Both the position numbers and the translations under genes were made by a program. A stretch of DNA of 47,075 nucleotides from Candidatus Methanovirga procula (GTDB lineage Archaea > Methanobacteriota > Methanobacteria > Methanobacteriales > Methanobacteriaceae): assembly GCA_031280375.1 (NCBI GenBank), contig JAITGU010000050.1, positions 1 to 47,075 on the forward strand, read 5' to 3'. This document shows, one piece after another, positions 3,189-47,075 of this stretch. The notes under the pieces were generated by a model. The model was not told the origin of the DNA. It was given only the letters and a program-made list of their open reading frames with translations, and did no database searches. Each line of letters opens with the position of its first letter. Position 1 is the first letter of the stretch.

Positions 3189-3513
3189 ATATAAGTTCAT
3201 AAGGTAATTTCTTGTAAATTAACTTATTGATATATTGATTAAATTTAAATTTATTATATTATTACTCTTATTTTTTAAAAATATGTAATATAATTATTTG
3301 ATATTAAAAAATTTTATAAACAGTATCATAACCACTTAATTTTCATAGTTTTAAACTTGATTTTTAATAATTTTTACCTGCTTTTTATTATCAAAATTCA
3401 TTCATTAAGTTTTAACTCTCTTTTTTTCATATAAAATAAATTATATATAAACATTTAAAATTAAATTGTCATGACAATAGTAAAGGCATTTTCTTAAACT
3501 TAATATATGATGT

Positions 3514-3998
3514 TAGTTTTTGGAAAATGATTTTGATGAACCTTTTGTTTTTAACGAAGTGAAAAACTTAGGAGACGAAGTCTCCGTTTATTCTCAAGCG
3601 AAGCATGAGAATTTAGAAAAATCTCTGATTTTTTGTTATTTCGAACGAAGTGAAAAATTTAACGAAATTTTATAATTTCGTGTTTTTAAAAGTTTCTTCT
3701 AAATAGTAAAAAATTGAAGTTTTTTAAACTTATAAAAACTTTTGATGAAACTTTTGTTTTGAACGAAGTGAAAAACTTAGGAGACGGAGTCTCCGTTTCT
3801 AAAAGTTTCTTCTAAATAGTAAAAAATTGAAGTTTTTTAAACTTATAAAAACTTTTGATGAAACTTTTGTTTCGAATGAAATGAAAAACTTAGGAAAATC
3901 TCTGATTTTCCGTTTTCTAAAAGTTTCTTCTAAATAGTAAAAAATCTAAGATTTTGAAATTTATAAAAGTTTTGATGAGTTTTTTAAAAGGTTCTTAT
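3514..3998 (+). repeat. Hairpin-array element, locus A (one long unit plus tandem units of 113 and 117 bp and a partial fourth)
   Basis: Units start with TTTTGATGAA at 3531, 3740, 3853 and 3970, and the locus ends with AAAAGGTTCTTAT at 3986-3998. Hairpins seen: ggagac-gaa-gtctcc, attctcaagc-gaa-gcatgagaat, aaaaatc-tctg-attttt, aacgaaatt-ttat-aatttcgt, ggagac-gga-gtctcc and ggaaaatc-tctg-attttcc. Confidence 0.9.
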
Positions 3999-4041
3999 AA
4001 AACATAAAATATAATATCTAACAAAAATAATAATTGCTATT

Positions 4042-6165
4042 ATGAAAAAGAATATTTATCTTGGTAAAGAGAATATTTATCCATTCACAGCTATTGTAGG
4101 TCAAGAAAAGATTAAAAAAGCCTTAATACTAAATGCCATCAATCCTTCAATTGGTGGAGTATTGATTAAAGGAGATAGGGGAACAGGAAAAACAACAGCT
4201 GTTAGAGCATTAAGTAGTTTACTGCCAGAAATAGAAACTGTTGAAGGCTCACCATTCAATGTAGATAAAAATGAATACATTAATTTCCAATTGTACAAAT
4301 TCCATAACAAAACAAAGGAGGATGAAATTAAAATAGTTAAAAAACCTATGAATGTAGTTGAACTTCCACTTGGAGCTACTGAAGATAGAGTTATCGGCTC
4401 GATTAACATAGAAAAGGGACTGAAAGAAGGAGTAAAACAATTAGAGCCTGGAATTTTGGCTACTGCCCATAAAAATATACTCTACATTGATGAGATAAAT
4501 CTTTTAGATGATAACTTAGTGGATGTTCTATTGGATTCTGCTGCTTTTGGAATGAATACAGTTGAAAGAGAAGGAATATCAATTAAACATCCATCAAAAT
4601 TTATTTTAATTGGAACAATGAACCCAGAAGAAGGTGAACTTCGAAGACAACTTTCTGATAGAATAGGTTTAGAAATATTGGTTAGTGGAATAGAGAATAT
4701 TAAAGAAAAAATTACAATTATGAAGTATAGGCAAGAATTTGAGAAAGATCCTAAATCATTCAGAGAAAAATTCAAGGATAAAGAAATAAAGCTTAAAGAA
4801 AGAATAGAAAGTGCTAAAGATGGATTAGCTGAAGTTGAGATTGATGATAACTTAATTAGAATAATAGCTATAAACACTGATAATTTAGGATTAGAAGGGC
4901 ATAGAAAAGATATAGCTATTTTAAAAACTTCAAAGACAATAGCTGCATTTGAAGGAAGTAATACAGTGAATTATGAAAATGTGGTTGAGGCTTTTGAATT
5001 AGTTTTAGGTGAATATCCTGATTGTATGGATAGTTCTCAAAATGATGTCAATACTCCAAATAATGAAAATGATGGCACTGCTCAAAATAATGAAAGTAAT
5101 TATACTCAGAATAATAATGAAAAACAAGACACTGAGAAAAAAGAAGATAAAAATGACAATGAACAACAATCACAACAAAATACTAAAAATGAGGAAAACA
5201 ATAATGAAGAAGAAAATGAAAATTTATCAAATCAAGCACAAAGTGGAACTGATCTTAAAGAAAACGAAAATCAAGGTAGTGATTTAGAAATTAAAAGAGT
5301 TGAGAATCAAAGAAAAGTTGATGACTTTCCAATTGAAGAATTAGAAAAAGATATTAACAAAATTCTAATATTAAAAGGAAGAGAAAAAGAAAAAATTTAT
5401 GGTAATAGAGTAGAATCAAAGACAGAAAAAGGAAAATATGTTAAAACAAAGTTTTCAAAGGATTATAATGATATAGCTATTGATGGAACATTACGGGCAG
5501 CTGCAATTCATTCAAGAGATAAAATCTCAGTTAAAAAAGAAGATTTAAGAAGTAAAATTAGAAAACATAAATCAAGGGCAAGTATAGTTGTTGTAATGGA
5601 TTTAAGTGGCTCAATGATGAGTGATGAAAAAATAAATAAAATAAAGGGAATATTAAATAAAATTATTAAAAACATTAATAAACATAAGGACAAATTAACT
5701 GTCATTGGGTTTAAAGGTAATGAAAGTGAGATCATAATTCCAAACACAAAAAGACCAAGCTCTTTTTTAGACAAACTTGGAAAAATTAGTGTTGGTGGGA
5801 CAACACCAATGGCTAAAGGATTAAAAAAAGGATATGAGATTCTAAAAAAAGAAAAAAAATATGGGGAGTACATTCCTATGCTTATTTTACTCTCTGATGG
5901 GATGCCTAATGTTGGTATTAAAAACAGCGATTTAAAAAATATTACTGGAAGTCCAATAAAGGATGTTTTAGCTATTGGAAGACAGTTGGCTGATGATAAA
6001 ATATACATAATTGTTATAGATTTTGAAAAAAAGATCAAACAAGGTAAAAATGTTAATTTAGAGTTAGCTATTATTTCTAATGGCAAATACTATGATTTAG
6101 AAAATGTATGTGATTTTAGTGTAGCTATTGATAAAATATTAACTTATGAAAGGTCTATTTTATGA
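4042..6165 (+). CDS. Mg-chelatase-like ATPase, ChlI/ChlD (BchD)-type: AAA+ module, low-complexity linker and vWA domain
   Basis: N-terminus [38 protein letters not shown], Walker [14 protein letters not shown]-rich linker (about nt 5030-5290), and a C-terminal vWA with MIDAS motif [10 protein letters not shown]. Confidence 0.85.
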
Positions 6166-6190
6166 AAATAGCTATTTTTGTTTAATATTT

Positions 6191-6361
6191 ATAAGAACCT
6201 TTTAGAAACACGAAATTATAAAATTTCGTTAAATTTCTCACTTCGTTCGAAATAACAAAAAATCAGAGATTTTTCTAAATTCTCATGCTTCGCTTGAGAA
6301 TAAACGGAGACTTCGTCTCCTAAGTTTCTCATTTCATTCGAAACAAAAGGTTCATCAAAAC
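6191..6361 (-). repeat. Hairpin-array element, locus B (inverted copy of the first unit of locus A)
   Basis: The reverse complement aligns to 3531-3700 with 161 of 170 identical positions by my manual alignment, including a 90-nt perfect stretch. The same four hairpins occur in the same order. Confidence 0.92.
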
Positions 6362-6458
6362 TTATTTTTTAAAAATAATAAAATCCATTTTTAAAGAATT
6401 ATTTTAATATTTATAAATTCATTTTTGATTTTATTATTTAAATTAATGAATAATTAAT

Positions 6459-6600
6459 GTTTCGACCTTTAAGAAGCATAAATTTTTAGAAGTTGATTTT
6501 AAAAATGGTTTAAATATAATCACTGGAATCAATTCGACGGGCAAATCGACAATAACTCAAGGTTTAACCTATGCTTTTTTTGGCAAAAGCGATTATAAAC
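6459..6600 (+). pseudogene. Remnant of a P-loop NTPase N-terminus (SMC/RecF/Rad50/AAA_15-like)
   Basis: The frame reads KKHKFLEVDFKNGLNIITGINSTGKSTITQGLTYAFFGKS, with a Walker A in the position typical of these ATPases. It has no in-frame start codon, because the ATG at 6457 is in another frame that stops after 10 codons. The frame then runs antisense into argH. Confidence 0.5.
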
Positions 6601-8034
6601 TTAATGTTTGTTGTTTTGAATTTTCTTATCATATTCTTTTTTTAAAAATTTCTGCATATTCTTCGCAGATAATTCCACCATCTCAGGGGCAGGCCCTCCT
6701 ATAACATTCCTTGATTTAACATTTTGAACAGGATCCAAGGCTTTCTTTATTAAGTCATTAGGTAAAGATAATGATTTTCCTGTAAGCTTAATAGCTATTT
6801 TATCTACAAATTCAGAATCTATCTTGTTGAAATCAAGATCATCGTTGGAATTTACTTCATTTACTATTCGTCCAACGATTTGATGAGCTATTCTAAAAGG
6901 GGTTTTTTTTTCTTTAACCATTAAATCAGCCAAATCTGTTGCAGTTGCAAAATTTTTGTAAGCTAACTCCAATCCTCTTTCCTTTTTAAAGTTAATTGAT
7001 AAGGTCATTTTGGATGTTATACTTAAAATAGCTTCTGTATTTTCAATAACATTCCAAAGATGAGGATTTATCTCTTGTAAATCTCTATTATATGTGTATG
7101 GAATCCCTTTAAGTATCATTAAAATTGTCATAAGTTCTCCAGTTATAATGGATGATTTCCCACGGACTAATTCTGCAACATCAGGATTTTTTTTCTGTGG
7201 CATTATTGATGAGGTTGAGGAGAACTCATCAGATATTTCAATTAATCTGAATTCATAACTGCTCCACATAATTAGTTCTTCAGCTATTTTACATAGATTT
7301 GAAGATAAAATAGCTAAATCTGATACAACTTCAACTATGAAATCACGAGAACTAACACCGTCCATTGAATTCTCTAAGTAAGCATCAAATCCAAGAATCT
7401 TTGTAGTTAGTTCTCTGTTAATTGGAAATGTTGTTGTTGCTAATGCTCCTGAACCTAATGGATTTAAGTTCACTCGTTTATAACTGTCTTTAAGCCGCTC
7501 ATAATCTCTTTTTAGTGATTGGGCATAAGCCATTAGGTGATGACCAAAGGTTATTGTTTGTCCATGTTGAAGATGAGTGTATCCAATAGATATTATGTTT
7601 TTGTGTTCAATAGCTAATTCAACTAATCCTTCAATGAATTCAAGAATAGATATTTGAATTTCGTCTATTTTAACCCTTAAACTTAGTCTGAGGTCAGTTG
7701 CAACTTGGTCATTTCTTGATTTTGCTGTATGCATAAATCCAGCATCATCTCCAACTGATTTAATCACATATTTTTCAACTGCCATATGAATATCTTCATC
7801 AGCATGATTAAAATTTAGTGCATCATAACCTTCATCCATTAGTTTAAATAAAGCTTCAAGTATTTTATCGGCTATTTCTTCATCTACTATTTTTTCTTCT
7901 TTTAACATTAAAGTATGTGCAATATTACATTTAACATCTGATTCAAAAATATATTTATCAAATTCTACTGATGATGTAAATTCAGCGGCTTCTTCATCCA
8001 TTGCTTTCTTTAAACGACCATCTCTTATTTTCAA
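6601..8034 (-). CDS. argH: Argininosuccinate lyase
   Basis: 477 aa with the fumarate-lyase signature SSIMPQKKNPDVAELVRGK and GYTHLQHGQTITFGHH. Confidence 0.95.
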   Translation of the reverse strand: MKIRDGRLKKAMDEEAAEFTSSVEFDKYIFESDVKCNIAHTLMLKEEKIVDEEIADKILEALFKLMDEGYDALNFNHADEDIHMAVEKYVIKSVGDDAGFMHTAKSRNDQVATDLRLSLRVKIDEIQISILEFIEGLVELAIEHKNIISIGYTHLQHGQTITFGHHLMAYAQSLKRDYERLKDSYKRVNLNPLGSGALATTTFPINRELTTKILGFDAYLENSMDGVSSRDFIVEVVSDLAILSSNLCKIAEELIMWSSYEFRLIEISDEFSSTSSIMPQKKNPDVAELVRGKSSIITGELMTILMILKGIPYTYNRDLQEINPHLWNVIENTEAILSITSKMTLSINFKKERGLELAYKNFATATDLADLMVKEKKTPFRIAHQIVGRIVNEVNSNDDLDFNKIDSEFVDKIAIKLTGKSLSLPNDLIKKALDPVQNVKSRNVIGGPAPEMVELSAKNMQKFLKKEYDKKIQNNKH

Positions 8035-8584
8035 AAAAACACCTTGTTATATCTATTTATCTAAATTCAAAAATAGACAATGATTATATATGTCTTTTAA
8101 TATATTGTTATAGTATTGTTCATAGAGATTGATAGTACTTCTTTTAATATATTTAATTTATTATTGTATTAATTTTTTCATAGTAGATTATATTTTACTA
8201 TAAGATTATGAACCAGCATATATAATTTAAATATGACTTTTATAATATAATATAAATATTTTAAAAATTATAATTAATTATTATGAATAATAATTGATAT
8301 GTATAAATAGTTAATTTATGAATTAAATTATTTTGATTATATTTATGAATGATTTTTTTGATGAGTATAAAAAGTTATAAATAAATTTTTTTAATGAGTA
8401 ATAAAATATAAGTATATAGTTATTTTTTTTAATAAGTAAATTTTTTATCAATATTTTATTAAATTTTATATCTAAGATTTTATCTTTACAATACTATTTT
8501 TATATTGTTATTATTAGTTTATATTTATTGTTGTAATTTATATTGAAATAAAAAACAGATTTTAAATAAAAAATAGGTTTTAAA

Positions 8585-9265
8585 ATGAAGAATAATGTTT
8601 ATGAAATAGATTTATCTAAAATGACACCAAGAGAAGCAAATGAGTCCATTATAGGAAATGCTTCAAAATATGATAAAATAATTTTAAAAAATCCTCATGC
8701 AATGCACTATCTTATTGCAGGATTAGTAGAGGAAGTAGATATTGAAGTTGATGGATCAACAGGATATTTTATAGGAACCATGAATGATAAAGCGAATATA
8801 AAAGTCAATGGCAATGTTGGCTGGTTTGCTGGAGACAATATGACTGGAGGCAAACTTTTAATAGAAGGTTCTGCTGGTGATGGAGTAGGTCAAGGAATAT
8901 ATGGTGGAAAAATCATTGTAAGAAAAGATGCTGGTGCGAGAACTGGGGAGATAATGAAAAACGGCACTATAATTGTTGGAGGTAATTCAGGGTTTATGAC
9001 TGGAATATTTATGATGGGTGGTCGTATAGTTGTTCTTGGTGATTTAGGTAAAGACATTGGTGAATCTATTATAAGAGGAGTTATTTATGTTTTAGGTGAA
9101 GTTGAAAGTTTAGGGAAAAATGCAACTTTAGTGGATATTGATGATGAAAATAAGAAAGAACTTAAAAGTTTGTTAAGTAAGTATGATTTTAATTTAAATA
9201 GCTCTGATTATGATAGTTTTAGAAAAATAATTCCGAAAAGTAAAAGACCGTTTTATGGTAAATAG
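8585..9265 (+). CDS. Glutamate synthase GXGXG-repeat domain protein (GltB C-terminal domain / FwdC-like)
   Basis: Repeated G-x-G-x-G beta-helix motifs (GNVGWFAGDNMTGGKLLIEGSAGDGVGQGIYGGKIIV...). It is adjacent to, and on the same strand as, the FMN-domain gene. Confidence 0.85.
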   Translation: MKNNVYEIDLSKMTPREANESIIGNASKYDKIILKNPHAMHYLIAGLVEEVDIEVDGSTGYFIGTMNDKANIKVNGNVGWFAGDNMTGGKLLIEGSAGDGVGQGIYGGKIIVRKDAGARTGEIMKNGTIIVGGNSGFMTGIFMMGGRIVVLGDLGKDIGESIIRGVIYVLGEVESLGKNATLVDIDDENKKELKSLLSKYDFNLNSSDYDSFRKIIPKSKRPFYGK

Positions 9266-9285
9266 CTAAGATTGGAGGTTAATTA

Positions 9286-10767
9286 ATGCCATATAATGTT
9301 AAAAAAGATTCATTTTTGTGTAATAGAGAATTTTCTCGTCCAGGATGTTGTTGGTATAAGTGTGATGTTAAAGATGAGAATATTTGTCCTGAATGTTATT
9401 CATGCTATAATAATTGTCCTCACGGTGTTTATGAGATAATTAATAATGAACCATATCCTGTTCATCATAAAAACTGTGTTGGATGTAGAATTTGTGAGGA
9501 AATGTGTCCAAATAATGCTATTAATGTGTATGCAGTAAGTGATGACGTAAGAAATGTTTTTTCTTATGATGATGTGTTTGAAATTAAAAGAAAGTCAAAT
9601 GAAGGTTCATATAAAGTAAAGAGTATGGGAGCTGTTAGAAGGATTCCAACATTCGATGATCTTGTAATAATTCCAGCTCAAGTTTCAAGACCTCCATTGG
9701 ATAAATACAGAGAACCTTGTTTTACAAATGTGACCTTAGGTGATAGATATGCTGAACATCCTTTAAAATTAGATACACCTGTTATGATAGGTGCAATGTC
9801 CTTTGGTGCTTTAAGTAAAGAAGCGAAATTGGCTCTTGCATTAGGCTCAACTTATGCTGGGACTGCTTCAAATACTGGTGAAGGTGGAATGTTAAAAGAT
9901 GAGAGAAAATTGGCTAAAAAGTTAATTGCACAATATGCTTCTGGGAGATTTGGTGTTTCAGCTGAATACCTAAATAATGCAGATGCAATTGAGATTAAAA
10001 TAGGTCAAGGAGCAAAATCTGGAATGGGAGGTCATTTATTGGGTGAAAAAGTCACTGGAGAGGTTTCTAAAATAAGAATGATACCTGAAGGTGCAGATGC
10101 ACTTTCTCCAGCAAGACATATGGATATTGTAGGACCAGAAGATTTAAGCATGAAAATATCACAGTTACGTGAGATTACAGATTGGCAAGTTCCTATAATG
10201 GTTAAGTTTGCATCAGGAAGGGTTAAAGATGATGTGAAAATAGCTGCAAAGGGTGGTGCAGATATTATTGTTGTTGATGGTATGCAAGGAGGAACAGGTG
10301 CAGGACCAGGAGTTGTAACTGAACATTCTGGTATTCCTACAATAGCTTCTATTGTTGAAGCAGATAAGGCTTTAAAAGAAGTTAATTTAAGGAATGAAGT
10401 TAGTTTAGTGGCTGCTGGAGGAATTAGAAATGGAGCGGATATGGTTAAATCCATAGCCCTTGGTGCTGATGCAGTATACATTGGTACTGCTGCACTTATT
10501 TCATTAGGTTGTAGAGTATGTCAAATGTGCTTTAAAGGAAATTGTAGAAAAGGTATTGCAACACAAGATAAACAATTAAGACATAGACTTGATTATCATA
10601 AAGCAGGTGAAGACTTAGGAAGATATATTAAGGCAATGACTGAAGAAGGATGTATGTTAGTTCAACAAGCAGGAAATACACATTTAAGTAAAATTGAAAA
10701 AGAAGATCTCCGTTCACTAACTTTAGAAGCATCTAAATTAACAGGAGTTAAAATGGCTGGTTCATAA
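9286..10767 (+). CDS. gltB: Archaeal glutamate synthase FMN-binding domain with N-terminal 2x[4Fe-4S] ferredoxin motifs
   Basis: Cysteine clusters CPECYSCYNNCP and CVGCRICEEMCP, then a GltS FMN domain (GAMSFGALS, IKIGQGAKSGMGGHL, VVDGMQGGTGAGP, AAGGIRNGADMVKSIALGADAVY). Confidence 0.9.
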   Translation: MPYNVKKDSFLCNREFSRPGCCWYKCDVKDENICPECYSCYNNCPHGVYEIINNEPYPVHHKNCVGCRICEEMCPNNAINVYAVSDDVRNVFSYDDVFEIKRKSNEGSYKVKSMGAVRRIPTFDDLVIIPAQVSRPPLDKYREPCFTNVTLGDRYAEHPLKLDTPVMIGAMSFGALSKEAKLALALGSTYAGTASNTGEGGMLKDERKLAKKLIAQYASGRFGVSAEYLNNADAIEIKIGQGAKSGMGGHLLGEKVTGEVSKIRMIPEGADALSPARHMDIVGPEDLSMKISQLREITDWQVPIMVKFASGRVKDDVKIAAKGGADIIVVDGMQGGTGAGPGVVTEHSGIPTIASIVEADKALKEVNLRNEVSLVAAGGIRNGADMVKSIALGADAVYIGTAALISLGCRVCQMCFKGNCRKGIATQDKQLRHRLDYHKAGEDLGRYIKAMTEEGCMLVQQAGNTHLSKIEKEDLRSLTLEASKLTGVKMAGS

Positions 10768-10906
10768 TGGCCATTTACTTTTAATAGCTATTTAATCTAT
10801 ACTTTATAAGTGTATGTAATATTGTTCTTCATCTATTATTTATTTTACGAAAACTTTATTAATATAAAAATCTTAATTTATATAATTATACTTAAGATGG
10901 TTGGTT

Positions 10907-12007
10907 ATGATGAATTACGGCTTTTTATTTTCAATTACCTTTATAACAACGGTTTTATTTACATATTTTATTAAAAAAGTTTTAATCAAATCTAATATAG
11001 TGGATAATCCAATTGTTTCTGAACATAGACATAAAACAGGCACTCCTACAATGGGAGGAATAGCTTTTCTCCTCTCTATTTTATTTGTTACTTCTATTTA
11101 CTATAAGGAACCGTTAATAACAATTAGTGCATTAACAATGGTTGTTGCAGGGATAGTTGGTTTAATAGATGATTTAATAGGTCTTAAATCAAAAGAAGTT
11201 CAAAAAGTAATTAAAAATATAAGTGATAAAACAGTTAAAGTAGGCATACTAAATTTAGAACCAAATCATGAAGCAAGAATAGCTACATCAAAAGCCAAAA
11301 AAGATTTACCTGGATTATTGGATAAAAACTTAGTTAAAGTCATTGATGAAGTTCCAATTAAAAATGAAATGAGTGAAAAAGATAAAATAATTGTTCAATT
11401 GGTTATAGGGATATTTTTAGTAGTAACTGCTTCAGTTTTTACCTTAGGAGGATACAATCTCGGACCGATTATTAATTTCAATGGGATTTTAGTAGGAATT
11501 TTAGCTATTCCAGTAATTTTAATAGGTATAACAGGTGCTATTAATGCTGTAAATTTAATTGATGGGATGGATGGTTTAGCATCAAGCATAATAGCTATTG
11601 CCTCATTTGCCTGTGTTATATACTTATTTATCACTGGAAAATTGGATAAATCACTTCCTTTTATAGTTTTAATTGGTGTGACATTAGGATTTTTAGTTTT
11701 CAATAGATATCCAGCTTCTATTTTTATGGGTGATACAGGATCATTTGTTTTGGGTGCAGGATATGCAACAGCAGTTTTAATTACAGATACTCCTTATTTC
11801 GGTGTTTTGGCTTTATTTGTCCCAATTATCACGGTTATTATCAGTCTTTTACATAGAGTTCATATTATTACTTTACCTATTGAACCTTTTCATCATGTTT
11901 TAAACTATCATGGAATCTCTGAAAAGAAAATTATAATCTCGTATTGGTTAATAACAGCCATAGTATCTACTATTGGTCTTTTAGCAGCATACTACTTCTT
12001 TTTATGA
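10907..12007 (+). CDS. MraY/WecA-family (GT4) polyprenyl-phosphate sugar-phosphate transferase, as used in pseudomurein or glycan synthesis
   Basis: Polytopic membrane protein with NAVNLIDGMDGLASS and FMGDTGS motifs. ATG 10907 is preferred over TTG 10901. Confidence 0.82.
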   Translation: MMNYGFLFSITFITTVLFTYFIKKVLIKSNIVDNPIVSEHRHKTGTPTMGGIAFLLSILFVTSIYYKEPLITISALTMVVAGIVGLIDDLIGLKSKEVQKVIKNISDKTVKVGILNLEPNHEARIATSKAKKDLPGLLDKNLVKVIDEVPIKNEMSEKDKIIVQLVIGIFLVVTASVFTLGGYNLGPIINFNGILVGILAIPVILIGITGAINAVNLIDGMDGLASSIIAIASFACVIYLFITGKLDKSLPFIVLIGVTLGFLVFNRYPASIFMGDTGSFVLGAGYATAVLITDTPYFGVLALFVPIITVIISLLHRVHIITLPIEPFHHVLNYHGISEKKIIISYWLITAIVSTIGLLAAYYFFL

Positions 12008-12200
12008 TTTATATTCACAATTTTTTTATATGCTATCTTTATCATTAGTTTATATTATTAATTTTATTAAAAGTAATATTTATATACTACAAAAAATAAT
12101 ATTATTTATTATAAAATAATATAAAAAGAGTCAATATTATTAATATTTATTTTTTACTCTATCTTTTTAGACAGTGCAAAGAACTCAATATTTTTTGGAG

Positions 12201-13090
12201 GTGTATAAACTGACTTTAAAAAATAAAGGTGTTGAAAATAAAGACATTAAATTAATGGATGATCGGATATTCAACTTATTTTTGGTAGAATAGATTCAAA
12301 AGAACTATTAAGAAGTTTTTCAGAGCGAATACTTGAGAGAAAAATCGGAATAAAAGACATCCTTAATGGTGAAGTAGTCTCAGAGGTTAAAAATAGAAAA
12401 AAAATTAGCTTAGATATTGTTGCCAAAACCACAGACAACACAATAATCCACATAGAAGCCCAAAACGCTTATGACAGAGGTCTTGAAAACCGAATAAAAT
12501 ATTATGCTGATAGAGAATGTGTAGTTCACCTGAAAAAAGGAGATAACTATCGTGATGCCCAAAAAATAATCTCAATAGTTCTACTCAACCATAAATTTTA
12601 TAAAGAAAAAGAAAAAATATATAAACATAACTACAAAATATTAAATACAGATGATTATTCAATTTACGATGACAATCCACTTGAGATTGTTATCTTTGAT
12701 AAGTTAAAGAAAGAACATTATGACTTAAATAAACCAATGGATCTTATTTTCATGTATTTGTTTGATTTATTAAGTCCTGAAGAACTTGAAAAAGCAATAA
12801 AAGAGGCTAAGTTAATAGAAAAGATAGAAAGGAGGAAGAATATGATTTTAAAGACTGAAGAAGAATTTCTTAAATTAGAATTAGAAAAAAGAGAAATGAT
12901 GGAAAAATACAGAATAGAAGATGCAGCAAAAGAAGCCTTAGAGAGAGGTAGAATAGAAGGTATTATTCAAACCTCTTTGAGATTGAAAGATAAGGGTTTT
13001 TCTTTAGAGGATATAAGTGATATAACTGGTTTATCATTTGAAATTAAGGAAACTAACCTTATAGTCAATGTTGCACATTTAATTTCTTAA
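12201..13090 (+). pseudogene. Rpn/YhgA-like PD-(D/E)XK nuclease (putative-transposase family), frameshifted near the N-terminus
   Basis: The N-terminal piece ...IKLMDDRIFNLF stops at 12291. The frame shifted by one continues FGRIDSKELLRSFSERIL...DIVAKTTDNTIIHIEAQN...GLSFE to 13090. The frames meet in a T5 run at 12279-12283. The first ATG of the long frame is only at 12737. Confidence 0.75.
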
Positions 13091-13704
13091 TCCATGCTGT
13101 TAACTTAATTTTTAAGTTCCATTAAGATGATGTTTAACATTAATCGGCTTTTACTATTTCACTGTTTTTAGATTTTATCACCATATTCTATTTTTTAATT
13201 CATCAATCCAAGGTATGTCCAAGTAAAACAACCAGCAATGGCTAAAATATTAAATAGTTTTTTTATTGTCTTATAAATTTTGCGATGAGTGTATTTTCTT
13301 TTTACTGACCATACTATTCATGCATTTAAAAATATTGAAGGTTTATTTTTTTTTTTTGCCTTGATTTACGGTATGTTTGTCTGCTAACAGGTTGAATGCC
13401 ATCATTTTTGAGCATATCTAATCTAATTCGGCACTTGTATTATACTTTTCCATGAAAAAAGCATGGAATAGATTATATCTTTGAGATTCATGTTTCTATT
13501 GTGTGTGAAGGATTTTAGAATTTATTCTGCTCATTTATAGGAATTCGTCTGAAATTATTAACTCAAAAAACTCTTTGAAGATGTTTATTATAATTCATAA
13601 TAAATGTAACTATCCATGTTTGTCTAATATAAAACATAATATAGATAATAAATAATGATAATGTACTATATAAATATTAAGTTAACAGCATTGTTATATG
13701 AACT

Positions 13705-13862
13705 TTTTTGATCAAACTTTTCTTACTTTTTAGATAAGTTGGGAACTTCAGTTTCTATTGATTTCGAAGGAAGTGAGAAATTTGGGAAACAAAGTTTCAA
13801 TTATTTCGAACGAAATGAGAAATGTAGAAAACAAAGTTTTCTTTGTTTTTCATTCTTAAAAA
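13705..13862 (+). repeat. Hairpin-array element, locus C (divergent ends)
   Basis: Contains ttttgatcaaactttt, then gggaacttcagtttc, then two modules: atttcgaaggaagtgagaaat plus ggaaac-aaa-gtttc, and atttcgaacgaaatgagaaat plus agaaaac-aaa-gttttct. Confidence 0.8.
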
Positions 13863-14086
13863 TGTTGTATAATAATTCTCTTAACTTATTGAGATATGAT
13901 GCTCATTAATTCACTTAATCAATCCATATAAAACTGAAATTCTCCATTCTTCGCAATATTTATTTATATGAATGTCCTCTATGTTTTCTCCGTTTATTTA
14001 CTTTATGGGATTATTATTTAGTATATATGGATTTGATTAGAAGATATATGAAACTAATGTTTTTGAAGATATGTTTCATTATAATT

Positions 14087-15075: not shown

Positions 15076-15209
15076 TTAAGAACTTCCTTCAAAATATGAA
15101 CATCACCTTTACTTAAAACTTTTAAGAGAATAATTGAAAATGAATAAGCAAATAGTGATATGGAATAGCAACAATTAAAAGCATTAACTTAAAAGTTTTA
15201 ATTTTTAAG

Positions 15210-15345
15210 TTAGAAAACTTTGATTTCGAGCAGAGAGAGAAATTTAGGGAATGAAATTCCCGTTGTTTTGAACAAAGTGAGAGACTTAGGACAGAGTATC
15301 CGTTAGTTCCAAACAAAGTTAGGAACTTAGAAAATGGAGTTTTCT
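15210..15345 (+). repeat. Hairpin-array element, locus D (5'-truncated, three to four modules)
   Basis: Modules: atttcgagcagagagagaaat plus gggaat-gaa-attccc, gttttgaacaaagtgagagac plus ggaca-gag-tatcc, gttcc-aaacaaagtta-ggaac, and agaaaa-tggag-ttttct. Confidence 0.8.
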
Positions 15346-15353
15346 TTATTTTC

Positions 15354-15465
15354 TTCAATTCAAAATTTTTTATTATTGAAAATTTATTTTTCAATTTAGA
15401 AGAATTAATTCTTCGTTTTTGAATTTAGAAAACGAAGTTTTTCTTTAATTCAAAATTTTTTATTT
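15354..15465 (+). repeat. Second hairpin module family, bounded by an 18-nt direct repeat aattcaaaattttttatt
   Basis: Contains ttgaaaa-tttat-ttttcaa, the 16-nt palindrome gaagaattaattcttc and agaaaac-gaa-gttttt. Positions 15362-15419 recur perfectly, inverted, at 37810-37867. Confidence 0.85.
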
Positions 15466-15983
15466 TCTTTAATTTTTAAATAAAATATTTGTATTTTTAA
15501 TAACTTATTAGATATTATTATTTCTAATTATAAAATGATTAAATTTAATATTTTTAAAAAATAAGGAGTTATAATATAATAAATTAAAATTTAGTCAGAT
15601 ATTATTGATAATTTAATTGCTAAAGATATGTCACTGACTATAGTTATGTAAAAAATTAAGAGAACAAGCTGAAGATAGTTTGTCTCTACGATATTATATA
15701 ATTAATTCTTTAAATCTATCAGATTTGAAAAAAAAGTATATCTTGATTGCAGAGTAAAAATAGGATATATTTAGATTTGAAAATAATAATAGAAAATGAT
15801 GCAATTTGTGTTTACATTGATAGTATTGATAGATATTTTGATTTTGGTGAATTATTTAGATTAAATGGTATTGTAGAAAAGATGAGTAAATATGGAGAGT
15901 ACCATGGATTGAAGTAAATCCATGAATATTCCATATCTAATTTAAAGGATGGATAACTTGGAATCCTTATTTGTTGAATATAG

Positions 15984-20056: not shown

Positions 20057-20629
20057 TCACTTTTTTGAAAAGAGTTTATTAAGTTTTTTTTTAGTGAATT
20101 TCAAAAGATAAAAATGAATTTCAGAAGATAACAATGAGTTTTAGGATGATTTTTTTTTGAATAATTTACAGTCCTTGGTATTAACAATAACTATTAATTA
20201 ATGAATTTTTCTATTGTTAAAAATTTATTTTTAACTTAGAAGAATTTATTCTCTGTTTAAAAATATTGATTGAAAATAATTTATTTCCTTATTAAGTAAT
20301 TTAAAATTAATTATATTAAAAAATATATTATTTAATTAAACAAAAATTCAAAATAAAATAGTATTATATTTATTTAAAAAGTCCATTACTTAAAAAAATT
20401 ATTCCAAGGGCTATAAATTATTTTTTATAATTTAAAATAAATTTTTAATAATATTAAATTTTAATATGCTAAAATTTTAAATCTCGAAATTTAAAATGAA
20501 TATATTTAATATGGGAGTTTATATACTATAAACTCTAAACATAAGTTTAGATATTGAATAAGTTTAAAATAATGAATCATAAGTTATATAAATAGTATAA
20601 TATAAATTGATATTTTGGATTAATAACTT

Positions 20630-23424: not shown

Positions 23425-23664
23425 TCTTATAAAATAATTAAATATTTGATTAATCCTTAAATGTACATTTGTTAATATATCATATAAATTAAGTATTTAT
23501 ATATCTTTTATCAGATATTTAATTAATTATAATTGTAAATATTATAAAACAACTAATATCATAAGTATTTAAAATTTTTAATTACTTTTAAAATTTCTTG
23601 ATTTAGAAATAAAATCTTTAATTTTGTAAATAATAAGGTATTTCTTAAAAACTAATTATTTTGA

Positions 23665-23880
23665 TAGTTTTTGGAAAATAACTTTTGATGAACCTTAACT
23701 TGTTAAGGTAAAGTTAGGGAACTCCAGTTCCCATTGATTTCGAACAAAGTGAGAAATTTAGGATACAAAGTATCCATTATTTCGAATTAAATGAGAAACT
23801 TAGGATACAAAGTATCCATTATTTCGAACAAAGTGAGAAACTTAGGGAATGAAATTTCCGTTTTTGAAAGGTTTTTCTAA
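23665..23880 (+). repeat. Hairpin-array element, locus E (best-preserved copy)
   Basis: Begins tagtttttggaaaataacTTTTGATGAACC. Then ccttaac-ttg-ttaagg and gggaac-tcca-gttccc. Then three modules (atttcgaacaaagtgagaaat plus ggatac-aaa-gtatcc, a second copy of that module, then plus gggaat-gaa-atttcc). Ends tttttgaaaggtttttct. Confidence 0.9.
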
Positions 23881-24078
23881 TAAATAAAATTGATTATAAA
23901 TAAATTTAGCAAAGATTATGATTAATATAAACTTTATGAAAAATTTCTATTTTGGCTTATTCTTGAACAAATAGAGTTAGGAAAATCTAATTTTTTATTT
24001 CCAGAGGTAATTATAGAAAAATTTTTTATTTATTCAAAGATTTATTAATTATAATATTAAAAACAATCAGAGGATAAT

Positions 24079-24612: not shown

Positions 24613-24736
24613 AATTAGATTTTTTTTTATTTCTTTTGATCAAAAAAGAGAATTTTCATCTTTTTTTATAAAATGAACTTCTTTAAAATAAGTTTTTTAT
24701 AAAGAATCAAATAATTCTTAAAAATCATCATTTTGT

Positions 24737-24866
24737 TAGCTTTTTGAAAAATTTTATGATGAACCTTTCGCAGCAAAATGAGAAACTTATGGAATTAACT
24801 TATCGTTGTTTCGAACAGAGCGAGAACTTAGGAACCAAAGGGTCTGTTTAAAATGATCTTCTAAAA
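24737..24866 (+). repeat. Hairpin-array element, locus F (short, degenerate)
   Basis: Reads tagctttttgaaaaattTTATGATGAACCTTTcgcagcaaaatgagaaac...gtttcgaacagagcgagaac plus ggaacc-aaa-gggtct...gtttaaaatgatcttctaaaac. Confidence 0.75.
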
Positions 24867-24982
24867 CTCCACAAAAGTTTACAACCTCAATATATCAATA
24901 AATTTATATAGGATAAAAACAAAAACTTTAATTGTTGTCTTATTTTACTTGAAATCTAATTAATAAATTTGTTATTATATGT

Positions 24983-25057
<75 letters not shown>

Positions 25058-29797: not shown

Positions 29798-30098
29798 GAA
29801 ATCCCTAATAAAATTGGATATATTGATAAAATCATTATTAATAAAATTTACAAGATTAATAACATATTAATTTAATGACATACTAATAAAAAGATTATAT
29901 TCAAATAGAAGTTATATTAATTATTTCTTATTTTAATTATAAATAGACTAATATCCATTTTAAACATGAGTTCTTTTTTAAGATACAAATTCCTAAAATT
30001 AATAATTAAATCAATATAACTATTGTTATATTTTGTTATATTGGATATAAATATTTTGTTGAACCTTTTTGTTTTGATGAAAACAAAGAATACTTAAC

Positions 30099-37784: not shown

Positions 37785-37870
37785 AAAATCGAAGATTTTT
37801 AATTCTTATAAAACGAAGAATTAATTCTTCTAAATTGAAAAATAAATTTTCAATAATAAAAAATTTTATA
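37785..37870 (-). repeat. Inverted copy of the second hairpin module family
   Basis: Positions 37810-37867 are the perfect reverse complement of 15362-15419 (58 nt). The adjacent hairpin is aaaatc-gaa-gatttt. Confidence 0.9.
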
Positions 37871-46751: not shown

Positions 46752-46991
46752 ATAAGAACCTTTTAAAAATGGGAATTTCATTCCCTAAATTTCTCGCTCT
46801 GCTCAAAATAAACTGAGACTTTGTCTCCTAAGTTTTTCACGACCTTCGAAACAAATGGGAAATCAGAGATTTTCCTAAGTTCTCACGACCTTCGAAACAA
46901 CGGAAACTGAAGTTCCCTAACTTACCTAAAGGTAAGAAAGTTTAAGAAAATCAACGATTTTCTAACTTAACAAGTTAAGGTTCATCAAAAC
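46752..46991 (-). repeat. Hairpin-array element, locus G (longest repertoire)
   Basis: The reverse complement reads TTTTGATGAACC. Next come ccttaac-ttg-ttaag, agaaaatc-gttg-attttct, cttacc-ttta-ggtaag and an imperfect gggaac-ttca-gtttcc. Then three modules (gtttcgaaggtcgtgagaac plus ggaaaatc-tctg-atttcc, gtttcgaaggtcgtgaaaaac plus ggagac-aaa-gtctc, attttgagcagagcgagaaat plus gggaat-gaa-attccc). It ends TTTTTAAAAGGTTCTTAT. Confidence 0.9.
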
Positions 46992-47075
46992 TTATTTATC
47001 CATTTTTAAAGAATCACTTTACTATTTAGAAATTTAAATCTTAAGTTCATAGCATTGGTTTAATTTTAATATTAA

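Follow-up and report, generated by a model that had tools for sequence, protein, structure and literature searches.

The window, a 47,075-nt contig analysed over its whole length, comes from a termite-gut Methanobrevibacter/"Methanovirga" archaeon. It carries a ChlI/ChlD-fusion chelatase gene followed by argH, with non-coding repeats on both sides of the chelatase gene (Table 1). The chelatase matches TIGR02442 at 8e-183 (below the curated cut-off) and the Pfam families Mg_chelatase, AAA_5, AAA_lid_2 and VWA_2. A domain search of the ORFs found no CobN/ChlH partner gene in the 47-kb window. Orthologues in relatives show identities of 97%, 90% and 72-75%. The GC content of the gene is unremarkable, and its divergence is in step with that of its neighbours, with 92.6% nucleotide identity to australis-type contigs vs 91.5% for pan. 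The AAA/SMC-like ATPase remnant beside argH is also present in contig L005 of the sister strain Methanobrevibacter sp. CfCl-M3.

Table 1. Features of the chelatase locus and further loci of the repeat family (window coordinates)
Feature	Position	Strand	Description
5' region of array A	3476..3530	+	DR-like ATAGTAAA at start, then TTTTCTTAAAC...GTTAGTTTTTGGAAAATGA; sister-strain homology starts here
Unit A1, left arm	3531..3696	+	Leader TTTTGATGAACCTTTTG, six hairpins, trailer TTTTTAAAAGTTTC
14-mer TTCTAAATAGTAAA, unit separator	3697..3710	+	More copies at 3810-3823 and 3928-3941
Units A2, A3, A4	3711..3994	+	A2: leader 3740, 2 hairpins; A3: leader 3853, 2 hairpins; A4: 3970-3994, leader and trailer, hairpin-less
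ChlI/ChlD-fusion gene	4042..6165	+	Intact, 707 aa, AAA+ and VWA domains; putative cobalto-/metal chelatase ATPase subunit
14-bp direct repeat, copy 1	6181..6194	-	TTTAATATTTATAA on + strand; read as target-site duplication
Element B, right arm	6195..6402	-	208 bp: 'short'-type 5' region, leader 6346-6360, six hairpins, trailer (6193-6204 region)
14-bp direct repeat, copy 2	6403..6416	-	From repeat search and alignment
AAA/SMC-like ATPase remnant, N-terminal	6474..6600	+	Walker A GINSTGKST; truncated against argH 3' end; context, outside the element
argH (argininosuccinate lyase)	6601..8034	-	TIGR00838 at 1e-169; syntenic in L005; conserved right-hand neighbour
Family locus C	13706..13850	+	5-6 hairpins; within a 2,055-bp segment missing from the sister strain
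Family locus D	15196..15360	+	~7 hairpins; leader/trailer not clear
Family locus E	23641..23885	+	8 hairpins, among them three 42-nt di-hairpin tandem copies
Family locus F	24725..24866	+	Kept in CfCl-M3; strain homology stops at 3' border of F
Family locus G	46754..47031	-	Fullest copy, ~10 hairpins; B-type 5' region; preceded by TTCTAAATAGTAAA

The inverted pair and its repeat family

Global alignment of 3531-3700 with the reverse complement of 6191-6361 gave 161 identical columns out of 171 and a longest perfect run of 90 nt, bearing out the near-identity that the preliminary description had derived by hand (161/170). A repeat search of the window returned the inverted arms as 3502-3713 and 6178-6389 (212 nt, 89% complementary). 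As had been described, the hairpins of the two arms are the same and follow one another in the same order, though we count six of them and not four. The set comprises two copies of H1, the family's conserved hairpin, together with GGAGAC-GAA-GTCTCC, ATTCTCA-A-GC-GAA-GC-A-TGAGAAT, AAAAATC-TCT-GATTTTT and ACGAAATT-TTAT-AATTTCGT; in A1 the hairpins lie at 3548-3566, 3571-3585, 3590-3612, 3617-3633, 3639-3657 and 3662-3681. The chelatase gene is indeed the sole gene between the arms, but three short units of the upstream array are enclosed as well.

The ten mismatches between A1 and B are unevenly placed: five fall within the first hairpin and three within the trailer, against a single one in the central ~125 nt, leaving an almost identical core between locus-specific edges. 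The 18-nt H1 motif occurs 11 times in the window against 0.05 occurrences expected by chance, and exact 14-mer direct repeats spaced 150-300 nt apart have a chance expectation of 0.38 in the entire window. A chance origin of the A1/B resemblance is excluded. The combination of a near-identical core and locus-specific edges suggests that A1 and B arose by recent copying or gene conversion. The latter had been proposed at the outset, and it also fits the lack of either hairpin set in the ~98%-identical sister strain CfCl-M3.

A1 and B both belong to a hairpin-array repeat that is small, lineage-specific and so far undescribed, and that is scattered through the genome. This non-coding family occupies at least seven loci in the contig (7-9 by count). 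Its architecture, read from the sequences of nine loci, consists of a 14-mer TT[AC]TAAATA[GT]TAAA, a 5' region of 29-60 nt, the leader TTTTGATGAACCTTTTG, N hairpins with a period of ~21 nt, the trailer CTAAAAGGTTC, which pairs with the leader, and the same 14-mer again. All exact matches to the 14-mer pattern in the window (6/6) lie at element borders. The hairpins, all intergenic, are perfect palindromes of 13-21 nt preceded by TTAG or GTAG, and a CTTAGG linker is conserved in the family. Units within one array all have the same orientation, with the G·A pairs and purine loops on one strand. Other loci carry differing hairpin sets, in agreement with the preliminary description, and the 5' region type of array A recurs at loci E and F. 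Array A itself contains a tandem repeat at 3682-3978 with a period of 113 nt (2.6 copies). When the leader is read as a coding start (ATG ATG AAC CTT), it opens an ORF at locus F only and meets a stop after 8 codons at B and E; the leader is thus not coding.

Comparison with related genomes

Relative to the sister strain, B is a 222-bp insertion composed of the 208-bp element and an exact 14-bp duplication. Contig L005 matches the window over 3913-6194 at 98.3% and over 6469-12030 at 97.2%, lacks 6195-6416 and has a single TTTAATATTTATAA vs two in the window, so that the empty site in CfCl-M3 is an uninterrupted target with one 14-mer. Both states were seen in independent contigs: Logan contig L010 has the filled site (the junction of B with the argH side) and L009 the sister-strain arrangement. 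The comparison shows what appears to be a recent insertion of B in the chelatase-argH spacer of the window lineage; alternatively, the absence of B from CfCl-M3 could reflect a precise loss through recombination between two 14-mers. The window and CfCl-M3 form the one clean filled/empty pair found. Locus F offered a second candidate empty site in Ca. M. australis, but this comparison is unusable because the alignment dissolves at a synteny break, and an exact-protein look-up for locus G in the sister strain returned no match.

A B-type element is also present at an unrelated locus in another species, with a 5' part that is 89.6% identical and the 14-mer once more in front of it. The terminal 45 nt of B, compared with the reverse complement of the other end, score 9, which equals the shuffled mean (276/500 shuffles score as high), and reveal no terminal inverted repeats. 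As no terminal inverted repeats and no partner enzyme were identified, the element is called mobile on the strength of the indel and of its spread to non-homologous loci. BLAST searches for a plasmid or phage source of B gave a single 46-nt chance match. In IMG/VR, the H1 pattern had 0 matches and the leader pattern 49 single, scattered, chance-like ones. Searches of metagenomes with the H1 pattern gave 4 matches, all by chance and all in coding sequence of unrelated organisms.

The upstream array has a different history. Three genomes have it at the chelatase gene, where it holds 0, 6 or 10 hairpins, in unrelated sets. In CfCl-M3 it consists of one hairpin-less unit and A4 only; blastn aligns 5224-5292 of L005 with 3476-3546 of the window at 82%, and homology is absent further left. 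Ca. M. australis has the chelatase gene with a different upstream element and none downstream, and its homology covers 3987-6188 only, i.e. the gene between the inner element ends. Likewise, the orthologous site of locus E holds 8 hairpins in the window, 4 in CfCl-M3 and 2 in Ca. M. australis. Together these alignments show the upstream array as a seemingly old resident with hairpin turnover.

On the argH side, the chelatase gene of CfCl-M3 adjoins argH without B and in the same relative orientation as in the window. The pan side is rearranged between the strains, and the break falls exactly at the element border. Thus the order pan-chelatase-argH, to be looked for in relatives devoid of the flanking repeats, was found in half: relative to argH the gene is neither absent, inverted nor relocated although B is missing, but its link to pan is broken.

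These comparisons bear on the preliminary reading of the locus as composite-transposon-like, a mobile cassette whose arms jointly move the chelatase gene as cargo. Near-identical inverted copies do bracket a single gene, the neighbours of this gene differ among relatives, and the homology in Ca. M. australis is confined to the inter-arm gene. However, cargo and arms are not present or absent together in relatives, where CfCl-M3 and Ca. M. australis keep the gene without B. The gene has diverged at the level of its housekeeping neighbours, with unremarkable GC. Pfam scans of 30 window ORFs revealed no intact transposase; the sole relic, a PDDEXK_2 pseudogene lying 6 kb away, is truncated. Because the arms are small (170-220 nt), ORF-less and without a transposase nearby, because the direct repeat (6181-6194 / 6403-6416) surrounds B only and not the outer ends of the 2.85-kb unit, because chelatase and argH adjoin in the B-less sister strain, and because the upstream array appears old, with unrelated hairpin sets in three genomes, a composite transposon finds no support and is extremely improbable.

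The locus had also been viewed as an invertible cassette, in which a recombinase would flip the inter-arm segment in a programmed manner and so control the chelatase or a neighbouring gene. With 170 nt of inverted repeat and a perfect core of 90 nt, the arms would offer an ample substrate for recombination, but no recombinase or invertase domain was found among the window ORFs (47 kb), one arm is missing in the sister strain, and each arm is an ordinary copy within a dispersed family, not a dedicated site. Orientation relative to argH is identical in the assemblies of the two strains compared; short Logan contigs stop inside the repeat. Furthermore, a flip would switch nothing obvious, since the inter-arm segment carries its own proximal upstream region (3700-4041) and expression need not change. 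No positive evidence for such a switch emerged, and we regard it as very improbable. Tn10-type composite transposons and hin/fim-type switches share with this locus an inverted related pair that brackets a gene; unlike them, it has no IS transposase, no recombinase gene and no outer-end duplication, and an arm is missing in the sister strain with the gene unchanged.

A mis-join through the repeat could likewise create a false inverted pair. The window is a metagenome-assembled contig, and other assemblies break at elements: L010 stops inside B, while L001, L006 and L007 begin just upstream of an element. Against such an artefact, the two edges of every arm are specific to their locus and agree with one another, the A1 trailer matching A2 and A3. 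On its trailer side B leads into sequence that L005 also has, L010 confirms the 5' side of B, and the chelatase-argH adjacency is independently seen in L005. With an identical run of at most 90 nt in addition, a mis-join is hardly credible.

Secondary structure and possible RNA role

The hairpins are kept as structure on one strand, as shown by an analysis of 17 di-hairpin units. In these, 93% of cells are paired, 7/12 pairs display compensatory changes, and none of 500 shuffles reaches the observed value. Of the 17 units, 16 keep the tandem GA/GA motif; the loops are rich in purines, and G·T is commoner than A·C (10 vs 4). Folding with the leader-trailer closing stem gives z-scores of -5.0 to -5.5; element B folds as a closing stem with a bouquet of hairpins, at z = -5 as RNA or DNA.

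Such conservation raises the question of whether the arrays are functional single-stranded elements, instead of or besides being selfish repeats, with A1 and B as two instances of one module set. They may be expressed as multi-hairpin RNAs, or act as REP-like modules in 3'/5' UTRs, ending or stabilising adjacent mRNAs or serving as a protein-binding site. The one-strand structure, the invariant tandem G·A and the conserved CTTAGG linker speak for this reading. The arrays also persist at orthologous intergenic sites over ~10% nucleotide divergence, their orientation matches adjacent genes at 5 of the 6 loci judged, and a T5 run follows the last hairpin at A1, E and G; oligo-T is an archaeal termination signal. 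On the other side, hairpin counts vary at orthologous sites (0/6/10 at A, 2/4/8 at E), and this turnover of hairpin content is unlike a sequence-specific RNA. The repeat has no Rfam match, and no convincing archaeal promoter was seen by eye. In addition, 3-nt GAA/AAA loops closed by C-G are more familiar from stable DNA mini-hairpins than from RNA motifs. On balance we consider a functional role of the arrays doubtful. Nonetheless, the conserved tandem G·A hairpin and CTTAGG linker hint at specific recognition, which a purely selfish repeat does not explain.

With the Rfam 15 covariance models, tRNA was the only match at gathering score and none fell on the repeat; an E-value scan of 3400-6500 gave a single chance match, inside coding sequence. 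Known RNA classes were compared directly. A C/D-box sRNA was rejected, as the leader TGATGA has no paired CTGA D box and no Rfam match, and so was a k-turn RNA, as the tandem G·A lacks a 3-nt bulge and an Rfam match.

Affinities and origin of the repeat

The hairpin-array family is undescribed, being without match in Rfam or in the literature searched. The CfCl-M3 genome paper does not mention hairpin-array repeats, and literature on Methanobrevibacter MITEs or archaeal REPs yielded nothing specific. With its 14-bp duplication, lack of terminal inverted repeats and conserved tandem G·A hairpin, the repeat does not fit the standard MITE, REP and IS200-derived classes.

Among known systems, the BOX elements of Streptococcus pneumoniae are modular repeats of the form boxA-(boxB)n-boxC. 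Like the hairpin-array repeat, they are short, non-coding and dispersed between genes, and have conserved end modules able to pair, internal modules in varying number and a strong predicted structure; neither kind of element codes for a transposase. Being bacterial and unrelated in sequence, they resemble it by analogy only; here, the internal modules are single ~21-nt hairpins with varying stems, and there is a 14-bp duplication and a 14-mer target. CRISPR arrays consist of identical 24-48-nt direct repeats with unique spacers, usually accompanied by cas genes. This class was rejected: the present units are self-complementary hairpins drawn from a common vocabulary, unique spacers are lacking, and no cas genes lie alongside.

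REP/BIME sequences share with the repeat extragenic palindromic units of 15-25 nt with a short conserved tag (here TTAG or GTAG-like), arrangement in arrays and likely single-stranded hairpins. Successive REPs alternate in orientation, whereas here all hairpins point one way and are framed by leader, trailer and 14-mer direct repeats. Tagged REPs and their RAYT (HUH) transposases have been described (PMC3733652, PMC2817692); no RAYT/HUH gene was found in the 47-kb window. MITEs are likewise small, non-coding and multicopy, with a target-site duplication (here exactly 14 bp) and presence/absence polymorphism between strains (here the 222-bp indel). Unlike MITEs, B has no terminal inverted repeats, its complementary leader and trailer being internal on the 5' side, and a 14-bp duplication is long for a DDE-type MITE.

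Casposase generates duplications of 15 +/- 2 bp, strongly prefers certain target sequences and forms head-to-tail arrays with a single duplication copy between units (PMC5137440). All three patterns are seen here, in the B insertion, the conserved 14-mer and array A. Casposons, however, measure 8-20 kb and have cas1, polB and terminal inverted repeats, none of which the hairpin-array repeat has; the likeness gives a lead on the insertion enzyme only, not on membership. No cas1 or polB was found in the 47-kb window. For the CfCl-M3 genome, the accessible part of the published supplement records COG3666 transposases, a TnpB pseudogene and a CRISPR cas1, none linked to the hairpin-array repeat, and contains neither 'polB' nor 'casposon'. 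The units might be miniature non-autonomous elements inserted by a Cas1-type casposase, or by a similar ruler-like integrase that recognises folded single-stranded DNA. Such insertion would explain the exact 14-bp duplication, the conserved TATA-like 14-mer target, the head-to-tail arrays with their shared 14-mer and the DNA-type GAA/tandem-G·A hairpins. We think it unlikely; if true, these would be the first 'mini-casposons' in nature and a living analogue of repeat-plus-insert array growth at a fixed site.

We favour the view that both arms belong to a modular, non-coding hairpin-array repeat specific to this lineage, which is unstable and moves at least from time to time, and that the chelatase gene, an ordinary resident passed on by vertical descent, lies between two copies by happenstance; as a whole, this reading is probably correct. 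Elements would enter TATA-like 14-mers by duplicative insertion, through an enzyme not encoded in the window. Tandem arrays may then form by insertion into an element's own flanking 14-mer or by unequal crossing-over, and hairpins may be gained and lost by slippage and by tandem duplication across the closing stem. A recent copy or gene-conversion event over the central ~125 nt would account for the near-identity of A1 and B. Homologous recombination between the inverted copies could now flip the 2.5-kb segment, as a by-product and not a designed switch, and judging from the repeats such inversion may occur in the population.

The chelatase gene would accordingly be neither mobile cargo nor a phase-variable gene, which removes a false lead. 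The repeat itself is a rare archaeal example of an intergenic repeat with secondary structure for which a clean filled/empty site is available. It sits at breaks in synteny between ~98%-identical strains and helps to explain the unusually low coding density of these genomes of termite-protist symbionts and their badly fragmented assemblies, in which contigs break at elements.

The arms around the chelatase gene

The window (47,075 bp, the entire contig; ~27% GC) carries housekeeping genes typical of Methanobacteriales: pan, argH, archaeal glutamate synthase subunits, HMG-CoA synthase/thiolase, IMP dehydrogenase and a pseudomurein-binding protein. Its nearest sequence is Methanobrevibacter sp. 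CfCl-M3 (97-98% nucleotide identity), a Cononympha endosymbiont in Coptotermes formosanus (PMC11287868). Next come "Candidatus Methanovirga australis"-type contigs (~92%).

We aligned the window to the CfCl-M3 contig L005, which matches 3913-6194 at 98.3% and 6469-12030 at 97.2%. At the filled site the window has ...GTTTAATATTTATAA[208 bp of element B]TTTAATATTTATAAATTCATTTTTG..., and the corresponding L005 site reads ...GTTTAATATTTATAAATTCATTTTTG..., without the element. Thus B, the right arm, is a clean 222-bp indel with an exact 14-bp duplication. The filled junction is corroborated by the independent Logan contig L010, and the sister-strain arrangement by Logan contig L009. All six exact matches in the window to the consensus TT[AC]TAAATA[GT]TAAA lie at element borders, and a B-type element at an unrelated locus of another species (contig L072) again has this 14-mer upstream, indicating that it is a strongly preferred duplicated target or recombination core. 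The ends of B revealed no terminal inverted repeats.

B is a strain-specific insertion, and the bracketing of the gene is a coincidence of two repeat copies. A composite-transposon-like cassette, as the preliminary description proposed, is excluded on its defining features: the arms contain no IS or transposase, the duplication encloses B only, and the gene and arms are not inherited jointly. A programmed invertible switch, also suggested there, finds no support, since the window has no recombinase gene, the orientation is alike in both strains, the sister strain lacks one arm, and a flipped gene would take its own upstream region along. Spontaneous inversion by homologous recombination between the arms would be physically plausible.

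What is left standing is gene conversion between the flanks. Aligning left arm A1 (first unit of upstream array A) to B over the interval first described gave 161 of 171 identical columns, and again the 90-nt perfect stretch; the shared hairpin set and order also held, but each arm has six hairpins rather than four. The ten differences are clustered: the first hairpin has five of them, the trailer three and the central ~125 nt one. The edges of A1 are A-type (first hairpin like that of A2, trailer identical to those of A2 and A3), those of B are its own (5' region of the type seen at locus G and in L072, own trailer), and the cores are virtually identical. Such a pattern is the mark of a recent copying or gene-conversion event that transferred hairpins 2-6 between two family members lying 2.5 kb apart, by which the pair appears recently homogenised.

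Identity among orthologues of the enclosed gene declines smoothly (97, 90, 72-75 and 54-58%). In every one of the relatives examined its neighbourhood is a different one, and none of them showed a CobN/ChlH gene adjoining it.

Positions of the features discussed (window coordinates unless a contig is named)
Feature	Position	Remark
Inverted arms	3502-3713 / 6178-6389	212 nt, 89% complementary
ChlI/ChlD-fusion gene	4042-6165	between the arms; intact, 707 aa, AAA+ and VWA domains
Further loci with the arm architecture (C-G)	13706, 15200, 23641, 24725, 46754-47031	
Degenerate family copies	near 30054 and 31106	
Probable relic of another element	3236-3312	also matches 15520-15597, inverted
17-mer CTTATTTTTTAAAAATA	3267-3283	within the probable relic; matches part of B's 5' region (6361-6377) exactly
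AAA/SMC-like ATPase remnant	6474-6600	N-terminal (…GLNIITGINSTGKSTITQGL…)
Segment missing in sister strain	12031-14085	2,055 bp
Transposase-like gene	12284-13090	PD-(D/E)XK 'PDDEXK_2', N-terminally truncated
Second repeat type	13094-13110 (reverse complement), 13679-13695, near 47040; L005 ~7670-7810	ends like TTAAGTTAACAGCATTG / CAATGCTGTTAACTTAA
58-nt inverted repeat	15362-15419 and 37810-37867	perfect; 22 kb apart
Related copies of 58-nt repeat	20179-20245 and 20420-20466	
CTCCACAAAAGTTTACAACCTC	24866-24900	directly beyond array F, upstream of tRNA at 24983
CfCl-M3 insert	L005 7640-10759	3.2 kb, gene-less, between chelatase gene and argH; absent from window
Methanobrevibacter sp. TMH8 genes	L011 3500-8358	separate ChlI-like and VWA (ChlD-like) genes precede the orthologous fusion gene

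A family of hairpin arrays

The arm architecture recurs in the window and in related genomes. Each unit runs from the 14-mer through a 5' region of 29-60 nt, a leader TTTTGATGAACCTTTTG, a variable number of hairpins with a period of ~21 nt and a trailer CTAAAAGGTTC to the 14-mer again. The leader core GAACCTTTT is complementary to the trailer core AAAAGGTTC, and in folding the leader-trailer stem closes the element (z-score ~-5, as RNA or DNA). A conserved hairpin, H1 (TTTC-GA-AC-GAA-GT-GA-GAAA), alternates with perfect but variable palindromes that have TTAG in front and RTT behind them. Among 17 aligned di-hairpin units, 93% of cells are paired and double changes occur at 7 of 12 pairs, a covariation reached by no shuffle. 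The tandem GA/GA motif is retained in 16 of the 17, loops are GAA, AAA, AGA or GGA, and G·T outnumbers A·C by 10 to 4. Together the covariation, the kept GA/GA motif and the G·T excess show that structure matters on one strand, in single-stranded form.

The family matched nothing in Rfam, nor in viral contigs, JGI metagenome contigs, plasmids or phages, and no description was found in the literature searched. It is lineage-restricted and, in these sources, undescribed. The arrays may serve the host, for instance in forming or protecting mRNA 3' ends or in binding a protein: of six loci judged, five share the orientation of adjacent genes, and at A1, E and G the last hairpin is followed by a T5 run. 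Hairpin content is not conserved at orthologous sites, which argues against a sequence-specific RNA.

Turnover and proposed mobility of the arrays

Each of the three genomes (window, CfCl-M3 and Ca. M. australis) has an array directly in front of the chelatase gene, and they have the final ~60 nt 5' of the start codon in common. Array A has units with 6, 2, 2 and 0 hairpins, in tandem with a 113-nt period; CfCl-M3 has leader and trailer with zero hairpins, and Ca. M. australis a G-like set of about six. Orthologous locus E behaves likewise, with 8, 4 and 2 hairpins and a 42-nt tandem duplication. Hairpin number turns over rapidly at fixed sites, and the upstream array is old and plastic. The 5' border of array A is precisely where homology between the window and CfCl-M3 ends; beyond it lie pan in the window and an HAD hydrolase in CfCl-M3; in an australis-type contig other genes come after pan. 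Thus the elements coincide with rearrangement breakpoints and contig ends, an association with synteny breaks.

We infer that an enzyme would insert elements into TATA-like 14-mers, that arrays would grow by re-insertion into a flanking 14-mer or by unequal crossing-over, and that slippage across the closing stem may remove hairpins. Such slippage would fit the CfCl-M3 junction CTTTTTCTAAAAG, which is the remainder expected from deletion between T-runs flanking the hairpins. The 14-bp length, target specificity and one-duplication-per-junction arrays resemble casposase products (PMC5137440), making a casposase-like enzyme a lead for insertion. Single-strand-DNA (HUH) enzymes are a candidate second lead, as the tagged palindromes with their GAA triloops and tandem G·A are reminiscent of the substrates of such enzymes.

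Other repeats and rearrangements nearby

The probable relic left of array A lies in a 300-nt stretch of strain-unique sequence between the pan-side genes and the array. On the other side of the chelatase gene, the ATPase remnant runs into the argH 3' end on the opposite strand and is kept as a remnant in both strains. The CfCl-M3 insert sits at the 5' edge of this pseudogene and contains degraded ORFs, several IS-end-like copies (GGGGACTGTCTAAAATTTTACTG and variants) and a copy related to the second repeat type.

The segment missing in the sister strain, where the flanking GT4 glycosyltransferase and RibD_C genes align 6 nt apart, holds the transposase-like gene and array C. Beside array C an inverted pair of the second repeat type encloses ~570 bp, and related copies adjoin array G. 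The 58-nt repeat contains TTAG-tagged palindromes (AAGAATTAATTCTTC, TTGAAAAATAAATTTTCAA) and apparently represents a further subfamily of arrays with tagged palindromes. In CfCl-M3 (L066 7867-8167 and 99-336), CTCCACAAAAGTTTACAACCTC occurs twice inverted, flanking another tagged-palindrome array, and in direct orientation at the contig's other end, which may reflect local inversion or duplication between strains. Over the whole window, cumulative GC skew is highest at ~24-25 kb. There the genes change from + to - orientation, and so do the hairpin arrays (+ for A and C-F, - for G and I), except B and H.
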